NCBI GenBank assembly: GCA_028820655.1
Contig: JAPPIK010000014.1
Span: forward strand, 271,079 to 335,078
Direction: 5' to 3'
Source of the DNA: Candidatus Poribacteria bacterium
GTDB lineage: Bacteria > Poribacteria > WGA-4E > JAJDTR01
Length of the DNA: 64,000 bases
Below the pieces are notes generated by a model. The model ran no database searches and was not told where the DNA came from. It was given only the letters and a program-made list of their open reading frames with translations. How positions within the stretch are numbered: position 1 is the first letter of the stretch; every line of letters starts with the position of its first letter. The translations under genes were made by a program, and so were the position numbers. Below, piece by piece: positions 7,565 through 54,950 of this stretch.

Positions 7565-7607
7565 GTTATACTGAAGAGAACCATCGAAGCTCCGATCGGT
7601 AGGAGGC

Positions 7608-24296: not shown

Positions 24297-24473
24297 TTCT
24301 TAAGCCTTGGATATTAAGGTGCCCGGAGCAGTCGGTTCGGTTGCCGCATGCGACAGTATTAAGCGCTTCCAAGATTCGAGTTCTTGCGCGGACAAGCACA
24401 ACCCGTCACTTATGCGGTCTTTACCGTACTCCGCGATCCAATGTGTCACAGATCTCCTACCCACTAGCCAATC

Positions 24474-32604: not shown

Positions 32605-33390
32605 TTGAAAATGATTCGTGTCTCTCATCTTACAAAGAAATACGGGACGAGCATCGCGGTTGATGATATTAGCTTCGAGGTTCCGGCAGGAGAGATTGTT
32701 GGATACTTGGGGCCCAACGGCGCGGGAAAAAGCACCACACTGAAGATGCTTGTCGGTTTGGTTGAACCGACCGCGGGCGACATATCAGTCGCCGGCTGCG
32801 ATGCTGCGACCGATTTGCTGGAACTCAAAAAACGCGTCGGATACGTTACCGAAAATGCGCAGTTATTTGAAAGCCTGACTTTGGCGGAGCATCTTCAGTT
32901 AATGGGGAGGCTCTACCATGTCGAAGAGTCGCTTATTCACAAGAAAATATTGGAGTTCGCCCGTCTTTTTGACATGGCTCCGAATACGAAACAGAAGATA
33001 AGCAGCTTTTCGCAAGGTATGCGCCAGAAGTTGCTGATCATGTCCGCGCTGCTGCACAATCCGGATGTTCTGTTATTTGACGAGCCCTTTACCAACTTGG
33101 ATGTGACGACAGTCACGCTCATGAAAACGATGTTACAGCGGCTCGCCGAGACTGGGAAGACGGTTCTGTACTGCACGCATATCCTTGAAGTGGCGGAAAC
33201 TCTGTGTCCCCGGATCATGATTATCAACAAGGGAAAACTGATTGCCGATGCCAGTGTTGAAGAACTACAAAAGATGACAAGTCAAACGGAGTTGGCTCAG
33301 ATCTTCGCGCAACTCACCGATACTGCCAGCGGAATTGATCAAAAAACCGAGGATGCGGTTCGGATTGTGATGGGAGGGGCAGATGCTTGA
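32605..33390 (+). CDS. ABC transporter ATP-binding protein (ABC-2/DrrA-like) inserted after nuoF
   Basis: Walker A 'GPNGAGKST', signature 'FSQGMRQKL', Walker B 'VLLFDEP', H-loop 'CTHIL'. Confidence 0.85.
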   Translation: MKMIRVSHLTKKYGTSIAVDDISFEVPAGEIVGYLGPNGAGKSTTLKMLVGLVEPTAGDISVAGCDAATDLLELKKRVGYVTENAQLFESLTLAEHLQLMGRLYHVEESLIHKKILEFARLFDMAPNTKQKISSFSQGMRQKLLIMSALLHNPDVLLFDEPFTNLDVTTVTLMKTMLQRLAETGKTVLYCTHILEVAETLCPRIMIINKGKLIADASVEELQKMTSQTELAQIFAQLTDTASGIDQKTEDAVRIVMGGADA

Positions 33391-35026
33391 TAAAATCGCA
33401 CAGATTTACGGGGTAGACCCGGCGCACTTCAAGCAACTTCTCAAATTGGATAAGACTGTGGCAAGCCGGGCAAAGGGTGACAAAAATGGGTCTGCCATTT
33501 TCTCGTATGGTTTGGTGTGCTGCTTCCATGTCATTTTGGGCCTTCCGGTCGCATTCATTCTGCTTTTTCGATTGTTAGATGCACCTGTAGATGGGTTCGA
33601 CTATGCGATTATTGGTCTATCGTACACAATGGTTATGACAGCGTTTTTGAGTTACTCGCGCCTCGAGTTTATTTTGAACCCGATTGACTATCTCGTCTTG
33701 GCGCATACACCGGTTTCGTCACGTACATTTTTCCTCGCGAAGTTGACAAGGCTGCTAGCGTCTACTGCAGTCATGTCGAGTTGTTTGAATCTGTTGCCGG
33801 CTATCACCGGGTATTGGACAGCGGAACGAAGCCCGTTATTTCCGGTTGTATATCTCGGCGTCTCCGTCATCGCCGGTTTTTTCAGCGTTGGTGTATTAAC
33901 GGTGATTACAGGCTATGTGACGAAACTACACACTTATGAAAAGTTGCGAAGTATTTCCAAGTATTCAGAATTGGCTTTTCCCGTTCTTTTTCCGTTTGTC
34001 TATCTCGTTGTTCCTCGTTTGTTGCCGGAACTAAAGATAGTTTCGGACAAGTTGATTCCGTTCCTTACCGCGTTTTATCTGCTCCCCAATAGTTGGTTTG
34101 CCGGGATGGTGGCGTTTGGACTGGGTGATGTACACTACCGTTTTCTAATTCTGACGGCGGTTGCAATTTTAGCTATGCTGCTGTTGGTGGTAGGTCCTCT
34201 TCGCAGCGTAGCAAAGGGTTACTCGAGATTCTTGACTTCTCTGTTGGAATCAAGGAAAACGCAGAAGCCCCAACTTAAACTGAGAGCATCGCTCGTTTCA
34301 CGCGTTTTTGAACGGCGAGAGACACGCGTGGGGGCTGACCTCGTTTTTGCATACTTGCGGCGCGATAGGCGAACGCAACTCCGAGTTTTCTCCGCAGTTG
34401 GTACTCCCGTCATTTTTCTCGCCATTTTGTTTCAAGACAATCCCGTTTGGGACTGGATTGGAAAACCCTTCACCATCTGGCTTGCCCTTGGCGTCTCCGC
34501 AATTTTCTTCTTTGGATGTTCAACTATGGTGAGTTCTTTCCTCGGCCAGATTCGGTACTCGGATCATTGGAAGGCAAAATGGATTTTTCAATGCGCTCCG
34601 TTAACAGTTCCGCACGCTTTATGGCGGGGCACGCTAGCGACCACCCTCATCTACATAGTTCTCCCTTATACTATACTGTTGTTGACATTGGCGACAATCT
34701 TTTGGCGAGGGCTTTGGGGAATGTTTTACCTATTGCCGGGATTAAGCGCCTTGCTCGTTTACGCCGTTTGTTACCCAAAACCGAATTCCGGGCTACCGCT
34801 TTCCGAGGAGTTTATTCAAAGCGGCTGGAATTTGGAGCAGCTTTGGCTCTTGATCCGGTTCATCTGCACTCAACTCATCTTCGGCGTCGTCCTGGCAATC
34901 CAATTTGTAATGTATAAGCTTGGCGTAGGGCTTTACATCGGGTGTTACGCCTTCATCGTTATCGGCGGAATTCTAATTTTCATCCATAACTTTAACAAAA
35001 AACAGTTGGGAGAGGTTCATGTATGA
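33383..35026 (+). CDS. Polytopic membrane protein, probable cognate ABC permease (uncharacterised family)
   Basis: ATG overlaps ATPase stop by 8 nt (translational coupling), gggagggg RBS; >=10 predicted TM segments; no recognised motif. Confidence 0.5.
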   Translation: MLDKIAQIYGVDPAHFKQLLKLDKTVASRAKGDKNGSAIFSYGLVCCFHVILGLPVAFILLFRLLDAPVDGFDYAIIGLSYTMVMTAFLSYSRLEFILNPIDYLVLAHTPVSSRTFFLAKLTRLLASTAVMSSCLNLLPAITGYWTAERSPLFPVVYLGVSVIAGFFSVGVLTVITGYVTKLHTYEKLRSISKYSELAFPVLFPFVYLVVPRLLPELKIVSDKLIPFLTAFYLLPNSWFAGMVAFGLGDVHYRFLILTAVAILAMLLLVVGPLRSVAKGYSRFLTSLLESRKTQKPQLKLRASLVSRVFERRETRVGADLVFAYLRRDRRTQLRVFSAVGTPVIFLAILFQDNPVWDWIGKPFTIWLALGVSAIFFFGCSTMVSSFLGQIRYSDHWKAKWIFQCAPLTVPHALWRGTLATTLIYIVLPYTILLLTLATIFWRGLWGMFYLLPGLSALLVYAVCYPKPNSGLPLSEEFIQSGWNLEQLWLLIRFICTQLIFGVVLAIQFVMYKLGVGLYIGCYAFIVIGGILIFIHNFNKKQLGEVHV

Positions 35027-36795: not shown

Positions 36796-37980
36796 ATGGA
36801 ATTACCACTTCATGTTCTCATCATTAGTTCGCTAATCAAGATTCTCATCGTGGTCCATGTGCTACTGATTGGCGTCATGGCGATGATTCTGGCGGAACGA
36901 AAGGTTAGTGGCTGGATACAGGATCGGCATGGGCCGAACCGTGTCGGACCGTGGGGGATATTGCAGCCAATTGCCGACGGCATCAAATTTTTCTTGAAGG
37001 AGGATTTGATTCCCGACCATGTGGACAAACCGATATATGTGCTTGCTCCCGCGATACTCCTCGTACCGGCGCTCATCATTTGCGCGGTGGTACCCTTCGG
37101 GAGTTCGATCACGGTGGCCGGATATGAGATACCACTCCAGATTGCGGACATAAACATCGGTATTCTCTATGTTCTGGCGATTACTTCGTTAGGAGTCTAC
37201 GGGGTCGTTCTTGGCGCATGGGCATCGAATAACAAATACTCGCTGCTTGGCGGTTTGCGGTCTTCGGCGCAGATGATCAGCTATGAGCTAACGTTGGGAC
37301 TCGCCATTATAGGAGTGCTAATGTTGTCGGGTTCACTCAGCCTGCGAGAGATTGCCATTGCGCAAGGTGCCAATATCTGGAATTGGAACTTCCTGATTCA
37401 TCTTCCCGCATTTCTCGCTTTCACGACCGCCGCATTCGCGGAAACCAATCGCTTGCCTTTTGATCTCGCCGAAGCCGAACAGGAGCTTGTCGCCGGATAC
37501 CACACCGAATATAGCAGCATGAAGTTCGCCATGTATTTCATGGCGGAATACATGAACATGATTGTGGGTTCGGCTGTCGCCGTTACGCTATTTCTCGGCG
37601 GTTGGCACCTCTTCGGGTTGGAGAACCTGGGCGGTCCCTTCTGGAGCGGCGTGATTTCAATCGCAATCTTTTCCGCCAAGACCGCACTCTTCCTTTTTGT
37701 ATTCATCTGGGTTCGCTGGACGCTACCGCGTTTTCGATACGACCAGTTGATGAATCTGGGATGGAAATTCCTGCTGCCCGTCGCTCTCACTTCAATCGTT
37801 GTTACGGCGATAGTATGGATTGGAACGCAGTCGAAGCTGTTGGTGGGGGTGTGCAACGTCGTAGCCGCCTCTGTTGTTGTCGCAATCGTTGCAAGTACGT
37901 TGGCGATGCGCCGTGAACCGGAGCAGATTGAACGTCAGGAACCCAGCTTCATGAAAGGATCCTCGTCTGGAAGGACTTAG
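36796..37980 (+). CDS. nuoH: NADH-quinone oxidoreductase subunit H
   Basis: 'ERK..G..Q.R.GPNRVGP.G.LQP.ADG.K' signature; 394 aa with C-terminal extension. Confidence 0.95.
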   Translation: MELPLHVLIISSLIKILIVVHVLLIGVMAMILAERKVSGWIQDRHGPNRVGPWGILQPIADGIKFFLKEDLIPDHVDKPIYVLAPAILLVPALIICAVVPFGSSITVAGYEIPLQIADINIGILYVLAITSLGVYGVVLGAWASNNKYSLLGGLRSSAQMISYELTLGLAIIGVLMLSGSLSLREIAIAQGANIWNWNFLIHLPAFLAFTTAAFAETNRLPFDLAEAEQELVAGYHTEYSSMKFAMYFMAEYMNMIVGSAVAVTLFLGGWHLFGLENLGGPFWSGVISIAIFSAKTALFLFVFIWVRWTLPRFRYDQLMNLGWKFLLPVALTSIVVTAIVWIGTQSKLLVGVCNVVAASVVVAIVASTLAMRREPEQIERQEPSFMKGSSSGRT

Positions 37981-38016
37981 CGATGGGTCGCAGCAATATG
38001 CAGTGTAAGGAGAGAG

Positions 38017-38724
38017 ATGAACGCTGAACCTATTCTATTCATCGCATTCGGAGCACTCGCCCTCATAGGCGCGGTTGCTGTAATCGGATTCAAGAATCCG
38101 GTCTATAGCGCCATTGCCTTGATCGTCACATTTTTTGCGCAAGCGGGACTATTTATCTTGCTCGGCGCGCACTTTGTCGCCGCCGTTCAGGTCATCGTCT
38201 ATGCGGGCGCGATTATGGTGCTGTTTCTGTTCGTAATCATGCTGCTCAACCTAGGTAGCGTTGACGTGGATCGTCCAAAGGCTGGAATTGCAAAAGGCGC
38301 GGCGGTCATTTTGGGCATTGTATTCGCGCTTGAAGGTGTCTATATCGCCGTGAATGCCTCCAAAGGTACGGCTGTGGCGCGAGTGAAACGGGAAAGCGCT
38401 GTTGGCGGAGGGTCAATAAGCGCAATGCAACTTAAAGAATTGAACAAGATACAAGCGACCTATCAGCTAACACGCGATGAGATTGACACTGAATACGTCC
38501 CGAAGGTAGCAGCGGCAGACAAAACAGTGGAAGATCTGACAGCGGACGAGGCTCGGACGCTGATTCAAACACTTCAAGGCGAGATGGGTAAAACCGAACG
38601 AATCGGAACCGTATTGTTTAGCAAATTTCTTCTGCCTTTTGAAGTAACTTCGTTAATTCTCCTCGCTGCCCTGATTGGCGTTATTGCGCTAGTGAAACGG
38701 GAGGAACCGAAAGAGGTTTCCTAG
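38017..38724 (+). CDS. nuoJ: NADH-quinone oxidoreductase subunit J (long form)
   Basis: N-terminal three TM helices typical of NuoJ; ~60-aa soluble insert before last TM; directly follows nuoH (no nuoI). Confidence 0.85.
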   Translation: MNAEPILFIAFGALALIGAVAVIGFKNPVYSAIALIVTFFAQAGLFILLGAHFVAAVQVIVYAGAIMVLFLFVIMLLNLGSVDVDRPKAGIAKGAAVILGIVFALEGVYIAVNASKGTAVARVKRESAVGGGSISAMQLKELNKIQATYQLTRDEIDTEYVPKVAAADKTVEDLTADEARTLIQTLQGEMGKTERIGTVLFSKFLLPFEVTSLILLAALIGVIALVKREEPKEVS

Positions 38725-39078: not shown

Positions 39079-41082
39079 ATGTCCATAAACCTCATAGTTC
39101 TTCTTCTAATTTCCCCACTGATTGGGTTCCTCATCAACGGTCTGTTCGGTAAATGGTTGAGAAATGCCGAGAAGCTGAGTGGCGGGATTGCGTGCTTTGC
39201 CGTCCTGATCTCACTTATCTGCTCGGTTATCGTGTTTACCCACGTCAAAGACGGCGTCGAGTTAAACCAGAGGCTCTACGATTGGATTGCCTTTGAATCA
39301 TTTGGGTTCAGCAAAGCCGAACTAGGTTCTGCCGAGTCACCTACCCCCATATTCGAGTGGATTACCGGCAACTTTGCGTTCAACATCGGGTTTCACGTTG
39401 ATTCCCTTACCGCCGTGATGTTGCTGATTATTACGGGTATCGGATTTCTCATCCACGTCTACTCGATTGGTTATATGCACGGTGATGCCGGGTATACGCG
39501 GTACTTCGCCTATCTCAACCTCTTCGTGTTCGCGATGTTGATTCTAGTTTTGGCGGACAACTATCTAATGATGTTCGTCGGTTGGGAGGGCGTTGGACTG
39601 TGTTCATATTTGTTAATCGGTTTCTGGTACGAGAAAAAATCTGCAACCGACGCCGGCAAGAAAGCATTCATCGTTAACCGAATAGGTGATTTCGGCTTCC
39701 TGCTAGGGATGTTCACTTTGTTCGCTGCCTTCGGCACGTTGGACTTTATTCCGATTTTTGAGCAAGCCGAATTCTTTGAGCGTGCTGAATCAACCGGTTC
39801 CAACCTAGTCTTTGGGGGAAACACGCAATTTGGGGCAAGTACGCTAGCTGTTGCGACCTTGCTTCTCTTTGTCGGTGCGGTGGGAAAATCGGCGCAAATC
39901 CCGCTGTATGTCTGGCTGCCCGATGCGATGGAGGGCCCAACTCCGGTAAGCGCTCTCATTCACGCAGCTACAATGGTCACGGCGGGTGTCTATATGGTAG
40001 CGCGTTCCTCCGTGCTATTTGAAATTGCCGGCACGGGCGATGTGGTTGCGTGGATCGGCGTCCTCACGGCAGTCTTCGCCGCCATCATGGCGTTAGCTGC
40101 CAATGACATCAAGCGTGTGTTGGCGTATTCCACTGTGAGCCAACTCGGTTATATGTTCGTGGGCGTGGGAATCGGCGCCTATGCGTCCGGTATTTTTCAT
40201 CTAATGACGCACGCTTTCTTCAAGGGTTTGATGTTCCTGACGGCTGGCAGCGTGATGCACGCACTGTCCAACGAGCTTGACATGAGAAAAATGGGAGGCT
40301 TGCGGTCGAAACTTCCGATTACGCATGTGACGTTTCTCGTCGGGGCGCTCGCCATCTCAGGATTCCCGCTTCTGAGCGGTTTCTGGAGCAAAGATGAAAT
40401 TCTGCACAGCGCATGGGAGAAGGGGCATCCTATCATTTACGTGATAGGATTGGTGACGGCTTTTCTCACGGCATTCTACATGTTTCGCCTAATCTTCGGG
40501 ACATTTTACGGCAAATCCCGAGTTGATGCGAACGTTCATCCGCACGAGTCGCCGCCGGTTATGTGGGTGCCCCTGGCAATTCTCGCCATTCCGTCGGCGC
40601 TCATCGGTCTTGCCCTATTGAGTTGGAAGGGACATGACAGCGCGTTCCATCATTTCATCGGCGGTGCCTTTGTCCACCACGGCGAAAAAGCAGCCCATCA
40701 CGCAGACAATGTGCTGCTCTTCATGGCAATATCATCTATTGTGGGTATCGCGGGGATTGCTTTGGCTTGGGTGAAGTACCGCGATTGGACACCGCTAGAT
40801 CAACCGCGATCAGCAATTCACAAGCTGGCTGCGGAGAAGTTCTACGTAGATGAAATCTACAACGCTGTGATCGTTCAACCCATCAAGAATGCTTCCCAAT
40901 TCGTGCTGTGGCGAGGCGTGGATGTCTCAATTATTGACGGAATCGTGAACGGCGTCGCTTTTGTCGTGCGTACCGTGGGAGGCTCGCTGCGGCGGTTTCA
41001 GACGGGTGTTGTTCAGTCGTATATTGTATCAATGGTTATCGGCATCATCATTTTTTTGGCGTATTACCTGTTTATTCGATAG
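39079..41082 (+). CDS. nuoL: NADH-quinone oxidoreductase subunit L (antiporter-like, with long C-terminal helix)
   Basis: 667 aa; Mrp-antiporter-like core 'GWEGVGLCSYLLIGFW'. Confidence 0.95.
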   Translation: MSINLIVLLLISPLIGFLINGLFGKWLRNAEKLSGGIACFAVLISLICSVIVFTHVKDGVELNQRLYDWIAFESFGFSKAELGSAESPTPIFEWITGNFAFNIGFHVDSLTAVMLLIITGIGFLIHVYSIGYMHGDAGYTRYFAYLNLFVFAMLILVLADNYLMMFVGWEGVGLCSYLLIGFWYEKKSATDAGKKAFIVNRIGDFGFLLGMFTLFAAFGTLDFIPIFEQAEFFERAESTGSNLVFGGNTQFGASTLAVATLLLFVGAVGKSAQIPLYVWLPDAMEGPTPVSALIHAATMVTAGVYMVARSSVLFEIAGTGDVVAWIGVLTAVFAAIMALAANDIKRVLAYSTVSQLGYMFVGVGIGAYASGIFHLMTHAFFKGLMFLTAGSVMHALSNELDMRKMGGLRSKLPITHVTFLVGALAISGFPLLSGFWSKDEILHSAWEKGHPIIYVIGLVTAFLTAFYMFRLIFGTFYGKSRVDANVHPHESPPVMWVPLAILAIPSALIGLALLSWKGHDSAFHHFIGGAFVHHGEKAAHHADNVLLFMAISSIVGIAGIALAWVKYRDWTPLDQPRSAIHKLAAEKFYVDEIYNAVIVQPIKNASQFVLWRGVDVSIIDGIVNGVAFVVRTVGGSLRRFQTGVVQSYIVSMVIGIIIFLAYYLFIR

Positions 41083-41112: not shown

Positions 41113-42651
41113 TTGCTACTTTCAGCAGTTATCTTTCTGCCGCTCATCGGAGCGATAATCATCGCGCTGTTGAGAACGATCGTTGGCACATCGGCAATTA
41201 AAAGCATTGCCTTCGCAATTGCCTTGCTGACATTTGTCGTTTCGTTATCACTTTACACCGGATTCGACGAGACGACGCACTTCATGCAATTCAAGGTGCA
41301 AAAATCGTGGATTCCGGAGTTAGGCATTAGCTACCAGTTGGGAATCGACGGCATCTCATTATGGTTGGTTTTGTTGACGACCTTCTTGACTCCGATTTGT
41401 GTCTTGGCGGCTTGGGGATCGATTGAAAAAGGTACCAGCGGCTTCATGATTTCACTGCTGATGCTAGAGACAGGGATGCTGGGCGTATTCTGTGCACTCG
41501 ATCTATTCCTGTTCTTCGTATTCTGGGAGTCGATGCTCATTCCGATGTACCTGCTGATAGGAGTTTGGGGCGGCAAACGGCGAATTTACGCGACGGTCAA
41601 ATTCGTGCTCTATACGATGGCGGGCAGCGCGTTGATGCTTGTTGGAATCTTGTATCTCTATTTCCAGAATGACAACAGTTTTGACCTCATGACGTTGTAC
41701 GACAAAGCCGGATCTTTGGCGCATCAGCGTCTGCTGTTCCTCGGTTTCTTTATCGCATTTGCGATCAAGGTCCCACTATTCCCGTTTCATACTTGGCTTC
41801 CCGATGCGCACGTTGAGGCCCCAACGGTCGGCAGCGTGATTCTTGCGGGCGTGTTGCTCAAAATGGGAACCTACGGGATATTGCGATTCTGCATTCCACT
41901 TTTCCCCGAAGGCACGGTCGCTTTTACGCCGCTCATCTCCACGCTTGCGGTTATCGGCATCATCTATGGCGCTCTCGTTGCCATGGTGCAGCCCGACCTA
42001 AAAAAGTTGGTGGCATATTCGAGTGTCAGTCACCTCGGATTTGTCGTACTCGGGTTGTTTGCGCTGAACAGTCAAGGAGTACAGGGCGGAATCATTCAGA
42101 TGGTCAACCACGGGTTGAGCACGGGGGCGCTGTTCCTGCTTGTCGGTATGATTTATGAGCGTAGGCACACCCGCATGATTGCTGACTTCGGTGGATTGGC
42201 GAAGTGCATGCCTATCTTTGCCACGATATTCCTGATTGTTACCTTGTCATCAATCGGATTACCCGGGCTGAATGGTTTTGTCGGCGAATTCATGATTTTG
42301 CTCGGAAGCTTCATTTCAGGGGCTTTTTCCAAAGTGTATGCCGTGCTTGCCGCAACCGGTGTCATTCTCGCGGCTGTCTATATGCTGTGGATGTTCCAAC
42401 GCGTGATGTTTGGAAAGCTTGACAAACCGGAAAATCAGAGTTTGAAAGATTTGAATCTTCGGGAAGTTATCGTGCTACTTCCCATACTCCTGTTTATCGT
42501 GTGGATTGGCGTGTATCCCAAGCCGTTCCTGAGTCGGATAGAGAAATCCGTCAATCACGTTTTGAAAGAGCATACGAAGGTCATGGCGGCGATTACCGAT
42601 TCTCAAAACGCCGTGGTGGTAGATGCCGGATACGAAGAGGACCGTAAATAA
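41113..42651 (+). CDS. nuoM: NADH-quinone oxidoreductase subunit M
   Basis: 512 aa antiporter-like subunit; 'HTWLPDAHVEAPT' motif; TTG start. Confidence 0.95.
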   Translation: MLLSAVIFLPLIGAIIIALLRTIVGTSAIKSIAFAIALLTFVVSLSLYTGFDETTHFMQFKVQKSWIPELGISYQLGIDGISLWLVLLTTFLTPICVLAAWGSIEKGTSGFMISLLMLETGMLGVFCALDLFLFFVFWESMLIPMYLLIGVWGGKRRIYATVKFVLYTMAGSALMLVGILYLYFQNDNSFDLMTLYDKAGSLAHQRLLFLGFFIAFAIKVPLFPFHTWLPDAHVEAPTVGSVILAGVLLKMGTYGILRFCIPLFPEGTVAFTPLISTLAVIGIIYGALVAMVQPDLKKLVAYSSVSHLGFVVLGLFALNSQGVQGGIIQMVNHGLSTGALFLLVGMIYERRHTRMIADFGGLAKCMPIFATIFLIVTLSSIGLPGLNGFVGEFMILLGSFISGAFSKVYAVLAATGVILAAVYMLWMFQRVMFGKLDKPENQSLKDLNLREVIVLLPILLFIVWIGVYPKPFLSRIEKSVNHVLKEHTKVMAAITDSQNAVVVDAGYEEDRK

Positions 42652-44151
42652 GTGAAAAATACTAACTACCAATCCGTTTCTGTCGCCCTTGTTTTTGGTG
42701 TCATCTTTCTGCTGCTCCCCACGGTTGCAATTTCAGCCGAAAAGGGACATGATGCGACGCATGAAGGTGGCGCACATGCTCACGGCGAGCATCACGGAGT
42801 CAATGGCGCGGAACTGCCTCTCTGGAGCATAATTCCATTCTTGGGCATCTTGTTGTCGATCGCATTTTGGCAACTTATCGCACCGCACTTTTGGCATCAC
42901 AATTACGGAAAAATATCGCTCGCCTGGGCGCTTATTTTTGCTATACCCTACCTGATATTTTATCATGGGAGCGCGCTTTACGATATTCTGCACATCTATC
43001 TGATTGATTATATTCCGTTCATAATCTTGCTATGGGGATTGTTCACGGTTGCGGGCGGCATTGTGGTGCGCGGCACACTGCGCGGTACACCGGTTGTGAA
43101 CTTCGTTCTGCTGTTGATCGGTACCGCGATCGCGTCATGGATAGGGACAACCGGCGCCTCAATGTTGCTGATTCGGCCCCTCATTCGCGCCAACGCCTAT
43201 CGCAAAAACAAGACGCACCTCATTATCTTTTTCATCTTTCTGGTGAGCAACATCGGCGGCTCCCTGACACCGTTGGGCGACCCTCCCTTGTTCTTGGGAT
43301 TTCTGCACGGCGTGCCGTTTTTCTGGACCACGACGGCGCTGCTACCGCACATGCTATTCATCTGTGTGCTGCTGCTTGCGATATTCTTCATCGTGGATAC
43401 CGTCATGTTCAAGCGAGAGGGCGGCGTGGTTCCCGATGATGGCGAGAAAGAACCGATTCGGGTCGCGGGATTGTTTAATTTGATATTCCTCGGCGGAATT
43501 ATTGCCGGAGTGTTGATGAGCGGCACCTTTCAGTGGGGCGAGATCAACGTGTTGGGTGTACACGTCGCGTGGCAGAATATCCTGCGCGATCTGGCTATTG
43601 TCGCGATGGGGTTGCTCTCGTTGAAGTTTACTCCCTTCTCGGGCGCGCTGCGGCGTGAAAATCAGTTTGAGTGGGAACCGATTGCGGAAGTTGCCAAGTT
43701 GTTCGCTGGAATCTTCATGACAATCATCCCGGCGCTTGCGATTCTCAAAGCCGGGGAACAGGGGGCGCTAAGTGCGTTGATTCGCGCGGTGAAGGAGCCG
43801 TGGCACTATTTCTGGATCACCGGTGTTCTATCCAGTTTCCTCGACAATGCACCGACGTACCTGACATTCTTCAATACCGCACTCGGGAAACTCCATCTGA
43901 CGGAGGCGATGGCGCACAAAATACTTATCGGGGCGGCGGCGAATCCCGAATTCGTCAGGCTGCTGACCGCTATCTCTGTCGGTGCTGTGTTCATGGGTGC
44001 CAATACCTACATCGGGAACGCACCCAATTTTCTCGTCAGAGGAATTGCCGAGTCAAGCGGAATACGGATGCCAAGTTTCTTCGGATTCATGCTTTGGTCC
44101 GTCGGCATCTTGCTGCCGCTCTTTGTGGTTATAACTCTTGTGTTCTTTTAG
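42652..44151 (+). CDS. Ion-transporter-superfamily permease (ArsB/NhaD/CitMHS-like) with signal peptide and His-rich periplasmic N-terminus, inserted between nuoM and nuoN
   Basis: GTG start directly after nuoM stop; 'AEKGHDATHEGGAHAHGEHHG' after signal peptide; ~12 TM with duplicated hairpin-like 'GGSLTPLGDPP' / 'FLDNAPTYL' segments. Confidence 0.55.
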   Translation: MKNTNYQSVSVALVFGVIFLLLPTVAISAEKGHDATHEGGAHAHGEHHGVNGAELPLWSIIPFLGILLSIAFWQLIAPHFWHHNYGKISLAWALIFAIPYLIFYHGSALYDILHIYLIDYIPFIILLWGLFTVAGGIVVRGTLRGTPVVNFVLLLIGTAIASWIGTTGASMLLIRPLIRANAYRKNKTHLIIFFIFLVSNIGGSLTPLGDPPLFLGFLHGVPFFWTTTALLPHMLFICVLLLAIFFIVDTVMFKREGGVVPDDGEKEPIRVAGLFNLIFLGGIIAGVLMSGTFQWGEINVLGVHVAWQNILRDLAIVAMGLLSLKFTPFSGALRRENQFEWEPIAEVAKLFAGIFMTIIPALAILKAGEQGALSALIRAVKEPWHYFWITGVLSSFLDNAPTYLTFFNTALGKLHLTEAMAHKILIGAAANPEFVRLLTAISVGAVFMGANTYIGNAPNFLVRGIAESSGIRMPSFFGFMLWSVGILLPLFVVITLVFF

Positions 44152-44170
44152 TTGAGTTCGGAGGAAGTAA

Positions 44171-45613
44171 ATGACGGTGCCTGTCATCAACTGGCACATG
44201 CTGATGCCCGAATTGGTCATTGTCCTGACGTTTGTCATCGTGATGGTTTTTGACCTGTTCAAGTCAATCCGGAAGTCGATTCTCGCTTGGGTGACCATTA
44301 TCGGCAGCGCAATCGCGTTATGGGCATCCGTAGAAATGCTCCATGCAGGGGTGAACGGGAGCCAGTTCAACGGCATGTTGGCCGTAGATCGTTTTTCGAT
44401 GTTTTTCAAAATCATCTTCCTTGTGTCAACAATTTTAGTATCGCTAATTTCCATCAATTATTTGGACCGAGGAGATAAGCGGCAAGGGGAATACTACGTG
44501 TTAATCCTCTTGGCGACACTGGGCATGATGTTGATGGCATCTGGCAACGAATTGATTGTAGTTTTCCTCGGGTTGGAGTTGATGTCGCTGTCGTTGTATG
44601 TGTTGGCAGGATATTTCCGCTCCGTGCAGGTATCCAGCGAAGCCGGGATGAAGTATCTATTGCTGGGCGCATTCGCCAGCGGGTTCTTCCTATACGGCAT
44701 CGCGCTGATATACGGCGGCGCCGGGACAACGAGCATTCCCGAGATTGCCTCGGTACTGGAAGACGGAGAAAAATCTCCATTGATGCTCGCTGGGATGTTC
44801 CTGCTAATTGTGGGGTTCGGTTTCAAAGTGGCTCTTGTGCCGTTCCACCAATGGGCCCCCGACGTATACGAAGGCGCGCCAACCACAATCGCCGCTTTCA
44901 TTTCGGCGGGACCAAAGGCAGCCGGCTTCGCCGCATTTCTCAGGATTTTCACGAGTGCACTGGAGAGCCTCCAACCGGAGTGGATTGTCGTGATTGTCAT
45001 TCTCGCGGCGTTAACGATGACCGTCGGAAACGTGATCGCGACAGCTCAAAGCAACATCAAACGAATGCTGGCCTATTCGAGCGTCGCGCACGCCGGTTAT
45101 GTGCTGGTCGCGTTAGCGGCGGCTAACAAAGATGGCATTTCCAGCGCCATGCTTTACCTGCTCGTCTACTGCGTGATGAATATCGGCGCATTTGCCGCGG
45201 TTATCCTTGCGACAACCGAGGATGGCGAAAATCTCAAAATCTCCGACTACGCCGGACTCGGGTTTCGGAAGCCGCTGCTTGCGTTGTTCCTGTCCATCAT
45301 GCTAGTGTCCCTTGCAGGGTTTCCGCCCACAGCCGGCTTCGTCGGAAAGTTTTACGTGTTCCGTTCCGCCGTGGATGCGGGCCACATTTGGTTAGTTGTG
45401 ATCGCGGCGATCAATACCGCAATTTCAGCGTTTTATTATCTTCGCGTCGTTGTGGTGATGTATATGCAGGAACCTGACGAAGAACTCGAATATCACGCAT
45501 ACCCGGGTCTACTGGTATTTACGCTTCTTCTCGCTACAATCGGAGTCGTTCTGATTGGGGTATTGCCTTCGTATTTCTTGGGGCCCGCCCAAATTAGCAC
45601 ACAGTTCTTCTAG
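44171..45613 (+). CDS. nuoN: NADH-quinone oxidoreductase subunit N
   Basis: 480 aa antiporter-like subunit; N-terminal pattern typical of NuoN. Confidence 0.9.
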   Translation: MTVPVINWHMLMPELVIVLTFVIVMVFDLFKSIRKSILAWVTIIGSAIALWASVEMLHAGVNGSQFNGMLAVDRFSMFFKIIFLVSTILVSLISINYLDRGDKRQGEYYVLILLATLGMMLMASGNELIVVFLGLELMSLSLYVLAGYFRSVQVSSEAGMKYLLLGAFASGFFLYGIALIYGGAGTTSIPEIASVLEDGEKSPLMLAGMFLLIVGFGFKVALVPFHQWAPDVYEGAPTTIAAFISAGPKAAGFAAFLRIFTSALESLQPEWIVVIVILAALTMTVGNVIATAQSNIKRMLAYSSVAHAGYVLVALAAANKDGISSAMLYLLVYCVMNIGAFAAVILATTEDGENLKISDYAGLGFRKPLLALFLSIMLVSLAGFPPTAGFVGKFYVFRSAVDAGHIWLVVIAAINTAISAFYYLRVVVVMYMQEPDEELEYHAYPGLLVFTLLLATIGVVLIGVLPSYFLGPAQISTQFF

Positions 45614-45642: not shown

Positions 45643-45939
45643 GTGCCAAATGTATTAACAATGGCTATGTTTAAGCGGAGTCCGGAAGAGTGGAGCAGCC
45701 TTGGTCTCGTGATGATTGGAAGCACGCTTGTATTTGCAATCGGCATCGGATCCGGATTGGGTTGGTGGATTGGCGGGAAGTTGGGTAATCAAAAGATCGG
45801 GCTAATCATCGGGTTTGTCGTCGGAACCGCGGCGGGTTTCAGGGAGATGTTTCGAACGGTGTCGCGCTGGAATCGGCGGATGGAGGAACAGGATCGGACA
45901 AATCGAATCCATGAAGATGATTCGGGAGAGGGTTCATAA
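45643..45939 (+). CDS. atpZ: AtpZ/AtpI-family small membrane protein preceding ATP synthase genes
   Basis: Two Gly-rich TM helices 'LGLVMIGSTLVFAIGIGSGLGWWIGG' / 'IGLIIGFVVGTAAGF'; position upstream of atpI-atpB. Confidence 0.6.
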   Translation: MPNVLTMAMFKRSPEEWSSLGLVMIGSTLVFAIGIGSGLGWWIGGKLGNQKIGLIIGFVVGTAAGFREMFRTVSRWNRRMEEQDRTNRIHEDDSGEGS

Positions 45940-45940
45940 G

Positions 45941-46360
45941 ATGAGTTCTCGGTCCCCATTCGAAGTAGATGACAATTTTCTTCGGCAAGTCTATCGATTG
46001 ACGGTAGTGTTAGGTGTCATCGGTACGGTGATTCTCTGGACGGTTTACGGCACGCCGGAAGGGTTAAGTTTCGCGATCGGCGGCTTTCTCAGTTTAAGCG
46101 CGATTTTATCGTTGGAGTACGTCGTTCGCCGCTTGGTTAAACCCGGTGGTCCATCGCGAGCCAAACGTTTGATCGGGTTCATTTTATTGGGTAAATACAC
46201 GGTGATTTTTGGAGGGTTTTATCTGTTGATGAAGACGGATTGGCTAAACGTCTATTCCCTCGCAGCCGGAATTGGCGTGGTACAACTTGTGATTATCCTT
46301 AAAGCCGTCAAACTCATGACTGGCATTCTATTCAGCGACAAGACAACCAAAGATACTTGA
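45941..46360 (+). CDS. atpI: ATP synthase protein I
   Basis: ~140 aa, four hydrophobic segments, located between atpZ and atpB; ATG right after atpZ stop (alternative ATG 45911). Confidence 0.6.
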   Translation: MSSRSPFEVDDNFLRQVYRLTVVLGVIGTVILWTVYGTPEGLSFAIGGFLSLSAILSLEYVVRRLVKPGGPSRAKRLIGFILLGKYTVIFGGFYLLMKTDWLNVYSLAAGIGVVQLVIILKAVKLMTGILFSDKTTKDT

Positions 46361-46370
46361 TGACATTGCA

Positions 46371-47276
46371 ATGAAAAAACACTGTTTGCTTTTCTTTGTT
46401 ACGGTTTTCGTTCTGTTTGGAGTTGGATTCGATTTTGGGTTTGCGGCAGACGATGCCCATGATTCCTCACACGATACTCAGAGCGAAGGGGAACATGGCG
46501 GCGGCGGAGCCCATCCCCACTATTCTTGGCTGCATCCGTTGTCCAAAATCATTCCGAACCATATTATTCCGGAACCCCTCGGCTGGCAGCAGCCGGACCT
46601 GATCCTCAATGCCTATTTCGTAGTGTTGGTTATCACCATCCTTTTCTTTTTCGGGACGCGAAAGATGAAACGACTCCCCGAAGGCAGAGGACAGACTTTG
46701 CTGGAGTTGTTTGTCGGCGGATTGATAAACTTCTTTGGTGGGATTTTGGGTGAACACGGGAAAAAATATGTCCCGTTTGTCGGATCCTACTTTATTTTTA
46801 TCCTGTTCCTAAACTATATTGGTCTAATTCCCGGCTTTCTATCTCCGACAGCGGATTTGAACACGACGGTCGCGCTTGGTATTTCCGCGTTAATCGGTGT
46901 TCATGTCATAGCTATCAAGGAAAACGGGATCATCGGTTATTTGAAGCATTTTGTTGGCGATCCGTGGTGGCTTGCGCCTTTGATGTTTCCATTGCACATT
47001 ATCGGAGAAATTGCGCGCGCCGGGTCGCTAGCAATTCGGCTCTTTGGAAATATTTTTGGCGAGGAATCAGTCATAATCAACTTGACCATCTTAGGGCTTG
47101 CAGTTCCGCACATTTTCGGTATGATACCTTGGGCGCCAATTCAGGTGCCCATGCTGTTTTTCGGACTATTTGGCGGATTTTTGCAGGCGCTTGTGTTCTC
47201 GATGTTGACATCAATCTACATCGTTACGTTCCTTGAGCATCATGACGAAGAGCATGGTGCGGAGGCACATCACTAA
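46371..47276 (+). CDS. atpB: F0F1 ATP synthase subunit a with signal-peptide-like N-terminus and His-rich periplasmic extension
   Basis: Conserved Arg in 'IGEIARAGSLAIRLFGN'; N-terminal 'AADDAHDSSHDTQSEGEHGGGGAHPHY'. Confidence 0.9.
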   Translation: MKKHCLLFFVTVFVLFGVGFDFGFAADDAHDSSHDTQSEGEHGGGGAHPHYSWLHPLSKIIPNHIIPEPLGWQQPDLILNAYFVVLVITILFFFGTRKMKRLPEGRGQTLLELFVGGLINFFGGILGEHGKKYVPFVGSYFIFILFLNYIGLIPGFLSPTADLNTTVALGISALIGVHVIAIKENGIIGYLKHFVGDPWWLAPLMFPLHIIGEIARAGSLAIRLFGNIFGEESVIINLTILGLAVPHIFGMIPWAPIQVPMLFFGLFGGFLQALVFSMLTSIYIVTFLEHHDEEHGAEAHH

Positions 47277-47362
47277 ATGATGAGCGGCTATTGCCGTTCG
47301 TTCACACTGTTCTTCAGTGTTTCAATCTCGGTAAAAGTTCACAAATCTAAGGAGGAAATTCG

Positions 47363-47680
47363 ATGATTTATCTTGCAGTTTTAGCTTTCGGGGTGGCGCT
47401 CGGTTTGCCGATTGCGGTAATCGCGGCATCGACCGCACAGGGAAAGGCAACGAGTACCGCTCTTGAGGGCATTGCACGCCAGCCCGAGGCTGCACCCAGG
47501 ATTCAGGTAGCGATGATTATCGGTTTGGCTCTTATTGAGTCTCTTGTCATCTATTCGCTGCTTATCTTTTTCCTGTTGATGGGAAAACTCCCGGACGTTA
47601 CGCCGGCTGAAGGGGAAAAGGTTAGCCCGCTCGAGAAGATTATGCAAGCAGCGCCGAGCGAAGAAAGTCACGACCATTAG
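47363..47680 (+). CDS. atpE: F0F1 ATP synthase subunit c with ~25-aa C-terminal tail ending SEESHDH
   Basis: Hairpin with 'ARQPEA' loop and carboxylate in 'LALIESLVIY'; ggagg RBS. Confidence 0.9.
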   Translation: MIYLAVLAFGVALGLPIAVIAASTAQGKATSTALEGIARQPEAAPRIQVAMIIGLALIESLVIYSLLIFFLLMGKLPDVTPAEGEKVSPLEKIMQAAPSEESHDH

Positions 47681-51059: not shown

Positions 51060-51926
51060 ATGGCAACGTTACGAGAGATCAGACGACGGATTGCGAGTGT
51101 TGAGAACATCAAACAAGTAACAGAAGCGATGCGAGTGGTTGCAGCGGCGAGGTTACGCCGCGCCCAAGAGAACATCTTGGCGACACGGCCGTTCGCCGAG
51201 AAGTTTAACGCGATTTTGAGCCACTTGATTGCGCAGATTGAGAATCCCACCCATCCGTTGCTAGAGAATAGGGAATTAAAAAACGTCTGTCTCATCTCTA
51301 TCAGCGCCGATCGCGGATTGTGCGGCAGTTTCAATAGTAATGTGATTCGTACCACGACGGAGAGAGCGCAGCATTATCAAGATGCCGGTGCCGCCGTGAA
51401 GATCATCTGTGTAGGCAGACGTACCCGGGACTATTTTGCACGGCGGGACTATGAGGTCATCGCCGAATATGTCAACATATTTCGAGATCTCAAGTTCGAA
51501 TCCGCTGTGGACATCGTTCATGAATTTGAGCATCTTTATACTGCACTGCAGATTGACAGGGTAGAGGTAATCTACAATAACTTCAAGTCCGCTATACTGC
51601 AGACGGTGCTCGTTGAACAGCTATTGCCGCTTACCCCGGAAGCACCGACGGGTGACGAACTCTTTCTCGATTATCTGTATGAGCCGGGACAGGAGGAAAT
51701 CTTCCAGTCGGTGTTGGCGAAACACCTGAACATGCAGATGTGGAAGGTATTGCTGGATTCCAACGCCGCGGAGCAGGCGGCGCGGATGGCAGCCATGGAA
51801 AACGCAACACGTAACGCCACGGATCTGATTGACGAGTTGATTTTGCAGCGCAACCGGGCGCGACAAACCCAGATTACGACGGAGATCTCCGAGATTGTGA
51901 GCGGTGCAGCGGCATTGGAGGGTTAG
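51060..51926 (+). CDS. atpG: F0F1 ATP synthase subunit gamma
   Basis: 'MATLREIRRRIASVENIKQVTEAM' N-terminus and C-terminal helix 'ITTEISEIVSGAAAL'. Confidence 0.9.
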   Translation: MATLREIRRRIASVENIKQVTEAMRVVAAARLRRAQENILATRPFAEKFNAILSHLIAQIENPTHPLLENRELKNVCLISISADRGLCGSFNSNVIRTTTERAQHYQDAGAAVKIICVGRRTRDYFARRDYEVIAEYVNIFRDLKFESAVDIVHEFEHLYTALQIDRVEVIYNNFKSAILQTVLVEQLLPLTPEAPTGDELFLDYLYEPGQEEIFQSVLAKHLNMQMWKVLLDSNAAEQAARMAAMENATRNATDLIDELILQRNRARQTQITTEISEIVSGAAALEG

Positions 51927-51927
51927 T

Positions 51928-53553
51928 GTGCTAGTAATGTTAAAAACTTTTGTCCGTTCTTGTATTGTTTTCACGTTTTTGGCTATTGGGTGCTTGTCCG
52001 CATTCGGTCACGGCGACGTTCTCCCTCTGTTGGAGGATGTCAACAATGACGGCGTCGTGAACATCTTGGACCTCGTCATTGTGGCAAACGCCTTGGGGCA
52101 GCCCGTGGATCGGGATATGGAGCAGAATCCGGATGTCAATCGCGATGGCGTCACTAACATCTTGGATCTCGTTCGAGTTGCCAACCGATTAGGCGAACGC
52201 GCGGCAGTTGACAACTCAACCTATCACGATTTTCAGGACTACATTTTCAACAAGAGTTGTACCGCAAGCTACTGTCACGCAGCTCCGACTAACGCCGGAA
52301 ATTTAAACCTCACAAGCGGTGTTTCATACGAAGATTTGGTTGGCCGCGTGCCGCAAAACCTTGCGGCGGCGTCTGCCGGGATGAAGCGCGTTGATCCGGG
52401 CAATCCAGACAATAGTTTTCTGTTGACGAAGCTCGTAGGTCCGTCCACTCCGGCAGAAGGAGGCCGCATGCCCTTGGGGGCGGGACCGCTCCATAGCGGA
52501 AAGATAGATGCCATTCGAAAATGGATTGCCGCGGGAGCACCTCGGAATGAAAAACTAACCGGCATCGGCGATCTAAGCCTGTTACGCGACCCGCTTGAAT
52601 CCTTTGAACCGCTCCCGCCGCCGCCGCCCGGAGAAGGTTATCAGCTTCATATGCCGGCTTTTAGAATTGAACCCGGTACGGAGCGGGAAGTCTTCTACGA
52701 TATGCAGATCACAGACGCAGCGGGACAGCCGTTGCAGGAGGATATCTTCGTCAACAAGTACGAGATCGCGTATCCGACCGGCAGTCATCACTTCATCCTG
52801 TATCGGTTGACTGAAAAGGCGTTGGAAGATGACCTACGTAATGTCGGAGTGACACCGGGAGTCGGGGTGAATACGCAAGATAAGTTCCGAGTGTTGGATC
52901 CTGCGAATCCGCAAGCGCTCGGAAATTTTGGCAAGCACCGCGTCTACAACACGGGCACCCAAACCGGCGAAAAGACGGTTTTTCAATTTCCCCAAGGCGT
53001 GGCTCTGCGGCTTGCGGGAGACACAATTTACGACCTGAACGCACATTTCGTGAATCTGTTGGGCACGGAAGCGATCGAGGGAGAGGTTTACGTCAATTTC
53101 TACACCATCCCTCCGGAAGCGGTTGAGCATGAAGCAGTGGAACTTTTCTCCGCCAATACCGACATTTTTGTTCCGCCGGGAACAACGCGTGTGGCAAAGA
53201 GGGACGAGACCGTGAGGGAGGAGATTGAACGCCGCGGTAACGATCCGAACACCGTGTTGAATCTCCTTATGATTACGTCTCATATGCACCGACACGGCGA
53301 ATTGTTTGAGATTTTTCAGATGTCAACGGGGAGTTTGCTCCATCGAAGTCTGGCTTACGACGATGCGCCCATCACGGTGTTCGACCCGCCGTTGGTTCTC
53401 GGCGCGGACGACGGCATCACCTACGAATGCACACATAATAATTATGATCGGGATGTTCCACTTACTTTCGGATTTACGTCCGAGGATGAGATGGCAATAA
53501 TTATGGGGTATTACTATCCCACAACCGAGAGTGTGGATACCTCAAGTGAGTGA
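51928..53553 (+). CDS. Secreted multidomain protein: signal peptide + 2 dockerin-type Ca-binding repeats + Planctomycete-cytochrome-C-like (PSCyt1-like) domain with Cx4CH + PHM/DBH-like type-2 copper monooxygenase domain
   Basis: Repeats 'DVNNDGVVNILDLV' / 'DVNRDGVTNILDLV'; 'IFNKSCTASYCH...GNPDNSFLLTKLVG...MPLGAGPL...IRKWIAAGAP'; Cu sites 'GSHHF'...'NAHF' and 'HMHRHG' ... 'SEDEMAIIMGYYYP'; start GTG 51928 or ATG 51937. Confidence 0.55.
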   Translation: MLVMLKTFVRSCIVFTFLAIGCLSAFGHGDVLPLLEDVNNDGVVNILDLVIVANALGQPVDRDMEQNPDVNRDGVTNILDLVRVANRLGERAAVDNSTYHDFQDYIFNKSCTASYCHAAPTNAGNLNLTSGVSYEDLVGRVPQNLAAASAGMKRVDPGNPDNSFLLTKLVGPSTPAEGGRMPLGAGPLHSGKIDAIRKWIAAGAPRNEKLTGIGDLSLLRDPLESFEPLPPPPPGEGYQLHMPAFRIEPGTEREVFYDMQITDAAGQPLQEDIFVNKYEIAYPTGSHHFILYRLTEKALEDDLRNVGVTPGVGVNTQDKFRVLDPANPQALGNFGKHRVYNTGTQTGEKTVFQFPQGVALRLAGDTIYDLNAHFVNLLGTEAIEGEVYVNFYTIPPEAVEHEAVELFSANTDIFVPPGTTRVAKRDETVREEIERRGNDPNTVLNLLMITSHMHRHGELFEIFQMSTGSLLHRSLAYDDAPITVFDPPLVLGADDGITYECTHNNYDRDVPLTFGFTSEDEMAIIMGYYYPTTESVDTSSE

Positions 53554-53644
53554 AAGAAAAATTCGGAAAGTTGCAATCTAAACGGTTGTGAAACTATTCT
53601 TAACGATTGATGTGCCAAGTAATTTAGTCAAAGGAGGACAACCA

Positions 53645-54466
53645 ATGGTACTTGGACCAAGAGGGACAATTCTCGTCATTCTGATGGCGTTGATAGCTTT
53701 GAGCGGGTGTGAGCAAGGCACCAATATCTTGGCGGACGCGCTGTCGCCCGAGGATCCGGAAATAGAGGCGACGCCGATTGAGGAAATATCGATGGAGGAC
53801 CCTCCATCCGAACCCATTATGGAAACTGTAGACGCGGAGTCTGTACCGGTCAAAATGGTGTGGTTAGTCGACTATCCGCTAGGCGGAAAGGAGGAGTATG
53901 TTGCATGGATCGCGTCCGTAGCGCCAATGCTGCTAGCTCCGGAAGAGCTTAATCGGGCGGCGTCTTACGACAACGTTGACGGATCCAATCCGCACCGCCT
54001 TGTCGAGTTCGAATTTGACAGTTTTGCCGATCTCGCGCACTATCTGAACCGTCCCGAAATTGCTGCGGTCTCTGCCGATATGCCGAATCACACCAGTAGC
54101 GCGAGTACGCACATATTTATCCAGCGCGGCGATTATTCGAAAAACGAGAGCACGAGCCGTAAGGTTAAAACCGTTTACTTAGTTGACTATCCGCTTGGAG
54201 GAAAAACTGAGTACCTGGAATGGATTGCCGCTATAGCGCCGATGCTGCAAGCCCCCGAAGAGGTAAAGCGGATAGCATCTTACGACAACTATTATGGCGT
54301 AACTCCACACCGGTATGTCGAGTTTGAGTTCGATAGCTATGAAGAAGCGAATACGTACCAAGAACTCCCGTACGTGCAGCAGCATGTTAATGCGGAGTTG
54401 CCTAATCGAACCAGCCGCACGTCTGTCCTGACCTTTGAGTTGCGATCCGATTACGTCAACGAATAG
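53645..54466 (+). CDS. Lipoprotein with two tandem ~100-aa repeats (dimeric alpha/beta-barrel, ABM/Dabb-like by pattern)
   Basis: aggagga RBS, lipobox 'ALSGC'; repeat 1 'VKMVWLVDYPLGGKEEYVAWIASVAPML..PEE..RAASYDN...PHRLVEFEFDS', repeat 2 'VKTVYLVDYPLGGKTEYLEWIAAIAPML..PEE..RIASYDN...PHRYVEFEFDS'. Confidence 0.5.
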   Translation: MVLGPRGTILVILMALIALSGCEQGTNILADALSPEDPEIEATPIEEISMEDPPSEPIMETVDAESVPVKMVWLVDYPLGGKEEYVAWIASVAPMLLAPEELNRAASYDNVDGSNPHRLVEFEFDSFADLAHYLNRPEIAAVSADMPNHTSSASTHIFIQRGDYSKNESTSRKVKTVYLVDYPLGGKTEYLEWIAAIAPMLQAPEEVKRIASYDNYYGVTPHRYVEFEFDSYEEANTYQELPYVQQHVNAELPNRTSRTSVLTFELRSDYVNE

Positions 54467-54581
54467 TCGAGGGCGTTGTCGTTACGCCGTAGGCATTAAC
54501 TAGGAAGAGATGCTGGAAGCGGATGATCGGGCTAGTGTTTACAGCGCGAGTAGGAGGAGACTTTTGAGCACATCGAAGCCG

Positions 54582-54950
54582 ATGGTCATCAATCAGTCGG
54601 AGCAGTCTTGGGAGGGCTGGGATGATGCCGAACTCGCGGACAAAAGTGCGATTCGCTGGAAAATCCTTATATCCGGCGAACGCGGATTAGTCACCGGTAT
54701 AGCGGAGTTTCCGGTCGGCACTCGACTTCCCCTTCACCACCACGAACCCCCGGAGACCTATTACATCGTCAGCGGGAAGGGAACCATGGAGATGGACGGT
54801 CACAAAACAGACATCGGACCTGGATCGGCGGTCTACATCCCGTCCAATGCGAAACACGCTGTATGGTGCACGGGAAATGAACCATTAGTATTCGTATTTT
54901 CCTTCGCGAGTGATCGATTCGACCAGATAGTCTATCACTTTGACGAATAA
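54582..54950 (+). CDS. Cupin domain protein (RmlC-like cupin)
   Basis: Cupin motifs 'G.RLPLHHHEPPETYYIVSGKG' and 'G..VYIPSNAKHAV'; alternative TTG start 54564 after aggagg. Confidence 0.7.
   Translation: MVINQSEQSWEGWDDAELADKSAIRWKILISGERGLVTGIAEFPVGTRLPLHHHEPPETYYIVSGKGTMEMDGHKTDIGPGSAVYIPSNAKHAVWCTGNEPLVFVFSFASDRFDQIVYHFDE

Follow-up and report, generated by a model that had tools for sequence, protein, structure and literature searches.

What might a secondary ion transporter be doing in the middle of a respiratory operon, between the genes for two antiporter-like subunits of complex I? The question is posed by a stretch of 64,000 nucleotides (nt) from Candidatus Poribacteria (hereafter the window, to whose positions all coordinates refer unless a locus is named), in which the gene for a 499-amino-acid (aa) permease separates nuoM from nuoN. 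The permease, a member of the CitMHS_2 family, is probably a secondary antiporter that exchanges a cation for protons, and most likely a Na+/H+ antiporter of the NhaE type (Transporter Classification (TC) 2.A.111), which would be made in step with complex I. The locus is a further example of a known arrangement and not a new system.

The coding sequence of the permease (42652..44151 in the list of open reading frames (ORFs), with a GTG start) lies on the + strand, as do all features located below from nuoL to atpE. Its flanks, identified by Pfam, place it within the series of antiporter-like subunits in the order nuoL, nuoM, permease, nuoN. The first of these subunits of the membrane arm is encoded by nuoL (39079..41082, 667 aa, PF00361 and PF00662), which is followed by nuoM (41113..42651, 512 aa, PF00361, E = 4.3e-80) and, after the permease, by nuoN (44171..45613, 480 aa, PF00361, E = 2.6e-80), the last gene of the complex I cluster. 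There is no gap between the TAA of nuoM (42649-42651) and the GTG of the permease (42652-42654), and a Shine-Dalgarno-like AGAGGA lies inside the 3′ end of nuoM (42636..42641), about 10 nt before the GTG. The permease ends with TAG (44149-44151), and a 19-nt spacer containing GGAGG (44152..44170) leads to the nuoN ATG at 44171. The abutting start codon and the short distance to nuoN, both noted in the original prediction, are thus confirmed from the sequence. The TAA-GTG junction is kept in five other Poribacteria, together with an AAGGAGG inside the 3′ end of nuoM. Apparent ORFs of 1016-1050 aa at five related loci (L011, L014, L015, L020 and L027) were considered as NuoM-permease fusions and rejected, since TAA directly precedes GTG in all of them. 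Around the permease gene, promoter- and terminator-like sites were no commoner than in shuffled sequence, the terminator signal in the spacer before nuoN did not exceed chance, and no break in G+C content or other compositional anomaly was seen at the gene. Judged by the gapless stop-start junction and by a layout that several phyla share, the permease is almost certainly co-expressed with the membrane-arm genes of complex I.

Gene order was surveyed at the 80 best of 577 relatives from a scan of a genome collection, by comparing their neighbours with the Nuo and Atp proteins of the window. The permease lies between nuoM and nuoN at 43 of the 80 loci, and at two more it follows nuoM and the contig then ends. 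Two loci (L066 and L069) have the order nuoM-nuoN-permease, three have the permease at the head of atpZ/atpI-atpB-atpE, twelve have it directly after atp(H)AGD(C), and the contexts of the other 18 are of different kinds. All told, the gene is inside or beside a chemiosmotic operon at 62 of the 80 loci. The closest relatives (94-95% identity) belong to metagenome-assembled genomes of Candidatus Poribacteria, several of them complete chromosomes. The nuoM-permease-nuoN set takes in nearly all of the Poribacteria, joined by one locus from Gemmatimonadota (L040), three from Latescibacterota (L041, L045 and L068), and three that were grouped as Marinimicrobia/Fidelibacterota (L058, L070 and L077, the last by clustering). 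Since the same order recurs in dozens of independent assemblies, complete chromosomes among them, it is not an assembly artefact, and the search for it in other genomes that had been proposed as a check has located it in four or more phyla.

The survey also bears on how tightly the permease is bound to complex I. The original prediction held it to be obligately co-expressed with the antiporter-like subunits; its embedding among complex I genes upholds the co-expression but not the obligation, as relatives that are 59-66% identical stand beside ATP synthase genes or elsewhere. The permeases that directly follow F1 genes are mostly from Syntrophales or ‘Deltaproteobacteria’ (with the F1 genes confirmed by Pfam on L054). 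Two of the three at the head of atp genes are poribacterial (L009 and L010), have no nuo flanks, and in a rough tree nest inside the clade of nuo-embedded poribacterial genes. The nuo-embedded genes as a whole fall into at least three separate clades in this crude neighbour-joining tree, which is too weak to choose between one ancient insertion and several.

One explanation for the arrangement would be that the permease is an accessory subunit physically attached to complex I, docked on the NuoM/NuoN side so that pumping and exchange are directly coupled. The retention of the nuoM-nuoN slot in Poribacteria, Gemmatimonadota, Latescibacterota and Marinimicrobia/Fidelibacterota would suit such a subunit, as would the apparent translational coupling to nuoM, and operon order often mirrors assembly order. 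An attached subunit is nevertheless very unlikely in light of the relatives just described that lie beside atp genes or elsewhere, L009 and L010 in particular, of the displaced order nuoM-nuoN-permease in L066 and L069, and of the lack of true NuoM-permease fusions at the loci compared. To our knowledge, moreover, the corresponding antiporter of Rhodothermus marinus, which is discussed below, has not been reported among the subunits of the purified complex I of that organism.

Which family the permease belongs to is settled by its match to Pfam PF16980 (CitMHS_2), which runs over residues 53-499 and covers the model in full length (positions 2-448 of 448) with E = 1.8e-181 and 604.1 bits, against a gathering cut-off of 25.7 bits. 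PF03600 (CitMHS) is matched weakly, with 45.7 bits over residues 129-412 only. Because this score is far below that for CitMHS_2 (46 versus 604 bits), the permease is not counted as a member of the NhaD/CitMHS family but as one of a separate family, to which NhaD, ArsB and CitMHS (PF03600 and PF02040; TC 2.A.62, 2.A.45 and 2.A.11) are relatives of the same superfamily and fold class. The profile comparison that had been proposed with families such as these therefore comes out in favour of CitMHS_2 and against CitMHS proper. The family is large, with 937 proteins in a library of representatives at 50% identity matching at E ≤ 1e-30, and the core is about 60% identical between phyla in the alignments. 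Orthologues and relatives at 52-65% identity carry the PGAP name ‘sodium:proton antiporter’, the IMG name is ‘Na+/H+ antiporter NhaD/arsenite permease-like protein’, and one older record reads ‘citrate transporter’.

No sequence-related solved structure was found with either the single sequence or a 40-sequence profile, and we know of no solved structure, and of only two characterised members, in the family. A model was therefore sought from AlphaFold (AF2), with a 40-sequence alignment as input (mean pLDDT 76.8, pTM 0.75). In a Foldseek comparison of this model with the PDB, the top 14 matches are all elevator transporters of the ion transporter (IT) superfamily with a probability of 1.00, among them Drosophila INDY, NaDC1, NaCT, VcINDY, NaS1, yeast Pho90 and ArsB, at TM-scores of 0.4-0.6 and identities of 12-16%. 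INDY, NaDC1, VcINDY, Pho90 and ArsB score 0.5-0.6; for ArsB (10tp_A) the TM-score is 0.53-0.60 and the identity 16%. By model and Foldseek, then, the permease belongs to the IT superfamily with its elevator-type fold, and the original assignment to an ion-transporter-superfamily secondary transporter is borne out by the CitMHS_2 match, the weak CitMHS match, and the fold matches to DASS, Pho90 and ArsB. With the DASS proteins (VcINDY, INDY, NaDC1 and NaCT) and Pho90 the permease shares an elevator-type architecture of two helical hairpins and two broken helices with ion-binding tips. Unlike these Na+-coupled anion symporters, to which it is 13-14% identical, it has GDPP, DNAP and GNAP in place of their SNT tips.

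The transporter core (residues 53-499, 42808..44148), as supported by invariant tips, helix breaks in the model, and fold matches, contains four helix-break-helix tips: TTGA at residues 165-168, GDPP at 209-212 (codons 43276-43287), DNAP at 398-401 (43843-43854) and GNAP at 455-458 (44014-44025). The tip motifs are invariant across phyla in two alignments and coincide with the helix breaks of the model. The invariant acidic and amide residues at the tips (D210, D398/N399 and N456/N459) are conserved as expected for a cation site. The repeated hairpin motifs described at the outset therefore stand at the level of motifs and model but not as a sequence repeat, since a profile-profile comparison of the two halves with hhalign gave a non-significant E = 0.09 over 14 columns.

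With regard to substrate, the reading as a Na+/H+ antiporter draws on the recurrent position of the gene in complex I and ATP synthase operons, which fits the handling of coupling ions. Several observations weigh against it. The Pfam name of PF16980 is ‘putative citrate transport’, no NCBIfam model matches the permease, and anion transporters (DASS, Pho90 and ArsB) predominate among the fold neighbours, so that the fold does not fix the substrate. The probable assignment to NhaE is drawn from database names, synteny and the literature; there is no Rhodothermus entry among the 80 best of 577 relatives, and neither Rhodothermus nor Neisseria entries were returned by the protein homologue searches, the search of 50% representatives, or the cluster look-up. 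Co-transcription with the nuo operon, too, is presumed from gene spacing. Part of this evidence would suit a different substrate, be it another cation exchanged for H+ (K+, Li+ or NH4+) or an anion such as a citrate-metal complex, a dicarboxylate, phosphate, sulfate or arsenite; the citrate label, the weak PF03600 match, and the identity of the top structural matches all point that way. Such a substrate is unlikely, though, given that the structural neighbours are just 13-16% identical to the permease and none is related to it in sequence, that a recurrent place in complex I and ATP synthase operons suits coupling ions better than nutrient uptake, and that PGAP names the protein a sodium:proton antiporter.

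The arrangement known beforehand, which the original prediction did not take into account, is that of R. marinus. Its nhaD gene (later NhaE) is said to have been placed by Melo et al. (2005, in BBA) within the nqo10-nqo14 operon and to be co-transcribed with it, and a second paper by Melo et al. (2006, in BBRC) reportedly dealt with the antiporter, which was first called nhaD. The gene presumably sits between nqo13 and nqo14, which we take to be the same slot as that of the permease here. Common to the two organisms is thus an IT-superfamily antiporter gene among complex I genes, and R. marinus belongs to the Fibrobacteres-Chlorobi-Bacteroidetes (FCB) group, as do several of the phyla showing the layout. 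The present case differs from R. marinus in its phylum, Poribacteria, in the long His-rich periplasmic head of the permease, and in the ATP synthase operon directly after nuoN. Embedding among the membrane-arm genes of complex I, a hallmark of the founding member of NhaE that is not a defining feature of the family, is found in the window and at 43 of the 80 loci.

The NhaE family, a member of the IT superfamily, was founded on the R. marinus antiporter, which in E. coli confers resistance to Na+, and not to Li+, at pH 6.5-7.5 (PMC9408914). A second NhaE, from Neisseria meningitidis, is active with both Na+ and Li+ around neutral pH (PMC9408914) and has been put in the same proposed family (Sousa et al. 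2013). CitMHS_2 proteins from beta-proteobacteria, such as that of Trinickia soli, are about 52% identical to the permease and are named sodium:proton antiporter. We know of no report of a complex I operon that contains the N. meningitidis gene. For the complex I of R. marinus itself, outward movement of H+ and inward movement of Na+ have been proposed (Batista et al. 2010, as cited in PMC3464577).

If the permease is an NhaE-type antiporter, the following scheme may be envisaged. The gene would be transcribed within the nuo operon, and its translation would be coupled to that of nuoM, as suggested by the abutting TAA and GTG and the Shine-Dalgarno-like site inside nuoM, and through this coupling the amount of permease would scale with that of the proton-pumping membrane arm. 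The proton gradient built by complex I would drive the antiporter, with H+ entering and Na+ leaving, which would keep cytoplasmic Na+ low and build a sodium gradient on which Na+-coupled uptake could draw. Should Na+ enter through complex I itself, as proposed for R. marinus, the antiporter would export it again. Ion handling coupled to the respiratory chain, as first suggested for this gene, is therefore retained, with Na+/H+ handling as the role that we infer to be most likely.

The permease begins with MKNTNYQSVSVALVFGVIFLLLPTVAISA, after which a cleavage site, judged by eye, is predicted to precede EKGHDATHEGGAHAHGEHHGVNG. The signal-peptide-like segment (residues 1-29, 42652..42738) has a basic n-region (MKNTNYQ), a hydrophobic core and an I-S-A site, and it is followed by six His in 25 residues. 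The ensuing His/acidic linker (residues 30-52, 42739..42807) is predicted from the sequence and AlphaFold to be periplasmic and disordered; in the model, a helix spans residues 6-24 and residues 20-47 are disordered with pLDDT < 50. Nearly all loci and homologues examined show a signal peptide, then a linker with few basic residues, and a (H)-H-G-x-(L/I)-G-x-x-L-P-x-W-S motif at the start of the first transmembrane helix (TM1), of which His-x-(L/I)-G beside TM1 is the only linker part that is widely kept. The linker otherwise varies widely in length and in His count (0-10): in Gemmatimonadota, Latescibacterota and Marinimicrobia it consists of a few residues, at most one of them His, and in some Poribacteria, KSB1 and Calditrichota it has 5-10 His. 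Many more distant family members have no head and start at the core. Because the linker is variable, nearly free of His in proteins of the same nuo slot, and absent from many distant members, the head is best regarded as a variable accessory feature, one that neither marks the nuo-embedded genes nor argues for transport of a metal. The signal peptide would put the disordered linker in the periplasm, where it may serve as an accessory surface feature, for instance a local proton buffer or pH-sensitive element, rather than as a substrate-binding site.

The His cluster had been read as a possible mark of metal (Zn or Ni) handling, and the permease could on this account be a transporter of Zn, Ni or Cu, or a metal-sensing permease, with the periplasmic cluster capturing the metal. 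The six His in 25 residues of the mature N-terminus and the acidic linker with its few basic residues are what speaks for it. Such a role is extremely unlikely: the disordered head differs greatly among homologues in its length and number of His, and it is almost absent from the Gemmatimonadota and Latescibacterota proteins of the same slot, whose cores are still more than 60% identical. No metal-homeostasis genes were found by Pfam among the neighbours in the window, and AtpB and NuoL, neither of them a metal transporter, have comparable His-rich stretches. Ranked by His density, the top three 25-residue segments of the window are those of NuoL (7 His, in a loop at residues ~517-541, ~40627-40701), the permease (6 His) and AtpB (5 His), all of them proton-handling membrane proteins, and the NuoL motif (HESP... 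FHHF) is partly general to NuoL.

A kinship between the head of the permease and that of AtpB (46371..47276), in which a signal peptide is followed by AADDAHDSSHDTQSEGEHGGGGAHPH, had also been raised as a question for alignment. The mature heads gave p ~0.04 in a shuffle test, and the full N-termini align better than shuffles by virtue of a shared order of blocks, hydrophobic then hydrophilic. In related genomes the presence of the AtpB insert is independent of the His count of the permease. Homology of the two heads was accordingly rejected, the likeness being compositional only. As separate observations on these ATP synthase subunits, the C-terminus of AtpB reads HHDEEHGAEAHH, and AtpE has a C-terminal tail of about 30 residues that ends in SEESHDH.

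Directly after nuoN come atpZ-like, atpI, atpB, atpE, atpF, atpH, atpA and atpG, and the start of this F-ATP synthase operon, from atpZ-like to atpE, occupies 45643..47680 (PF09527, PF03899, PF00119 and PF00137; atpB with its signal peptide and His-rich head, and atpE, the c-subunit, at 47363-47680, were both assigned by Pfam). Taken further, the juxtaposition could mean that nuo, permease and atp genes form one module of H+ pump, Na+ converter and ATP synthase, the last perhaps using Na+, with the His/acidic segments as a shared proton surface. The segments in question, on the NuoL loop (presumed periplasmic) and on the heads of the antiporter and of AtpB, would then hand protons locally from pump to consumers. 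Helix 1 of the c-subunit contains a Gln, and helix 2 the sequence E-S-L-V-I-Y. Set against the Ilyobacter tartaricus c-subunit, the poribacterial one presumably keeps Gln32, Glu65, Ser66 and Tyr70, with Leu for Thr67, and hence all but one of the five side chains that bind Na+ in that c-ring. The idea is weakened by Gemmatimonadota and Latescibacterota that have the same nuoM-permease-nuoN order and whose c-subunits are of the plain H+ type (lacking the Gln and with E-G for E-S), and such a module is very improbable.

For the probable Na+/H+ antiporter, the survey has consequences beyond this locus. Where a gene in a nuo operon is labelled ‘citrate transporter’ or ‘arsenite permease-like’, in Poribacteria as in several phyla of the FCB group, it is best read as encoding a probable NhaE-type antiporter produced along with complex I, and what was in 2005 an oddity of the single species R. 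marinus widens to a pattern seen in at least six lineages and at 62 of the 80 loci surveyed. That the gene turns up so repeatedly within or next to operons of complex I or F-ATP synthase speaks for selection to keep the capacity for Na+/H+ exchange matched to the primary proton machinery. The pattern also bears on the old dispute over Na+ movements ascribed to complex I, in that a co-expressed antiporter could confound measurements on membranes. The survey goes beyond the 2005 report in showing how widely the layout occurs (in Poribacteria and no fewer than three phyla of the FCB group), that the gene may instead be linked to ATP synthase operons, and that the stop-start junction is conserved; no published description of these points was found in the literature searched, whose coverage is incomplete.

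The wider complex I cluster reads nuoA, B, C, D, a glyoxalase-family ORF, nuoE, F, then an ABC ATPase gene and a gene for a 547-aa membrane protein, and nuoG, H, J, K, L, M, permease and nuoN. Between nuoH and nuoJ (36796-38724) nuoI is absent, and a C..C..C...CP ferredoxin motif occurs in no frame of the window; nuoI must therefore lie elsewhere in the genome. The nqo8 and nqo9 genes of R. marinus are reportedly likewise separate.

Other inserted genes are found in both operons of the window and around the permease in related genomes. The glyoxalase-family ORF (PF00903) fills the gap between nuoD and nuoE (29772-30113), and the gap between nuoF and nuoG (32605-35026) holds the ABC ATPase (PF00005) and the 547-aa protein, which is a multi-pass membrane protein with no Pfam match. 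Between atpG and atpD, three genes break up the atp operon (51904-54950); one encodes a 549-aa product in which dockerin and Cu2_monoox_C domains are present, and the others a cupin and a 292-aa ORF whose Dabb match falls below threshold (24.5 bits against a cut-off of 25). At Syntrophales-type loci the permease stands after atpA-G-D-C and is followed by a gene for a conserved soluble protein of about 196 aa (L054:7423-8013), which matches no Pfam family and lacks a counterpart in the window, and which is also present in L044, L048, L057, L059, L062, L063, L071, L073, L074 and L075. In Marinimicrobia/Fidelibacterota a universal stress protein gene (PF00582) lies between the permease and nuoN (L058:7401-7856 and L070:7410-7865), such a gene likewise lies 3′ of the permease in L051, and in L036 about 2.4 kb are inserted between the permease and nuoN (7461-9917). 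Shortly upstream of the nuo cluster (22929-25970), the window carries TrkA and TrkH potassium-uptake genes, followed by a gene for pyridoxamine 5′-phosphate oxidase.

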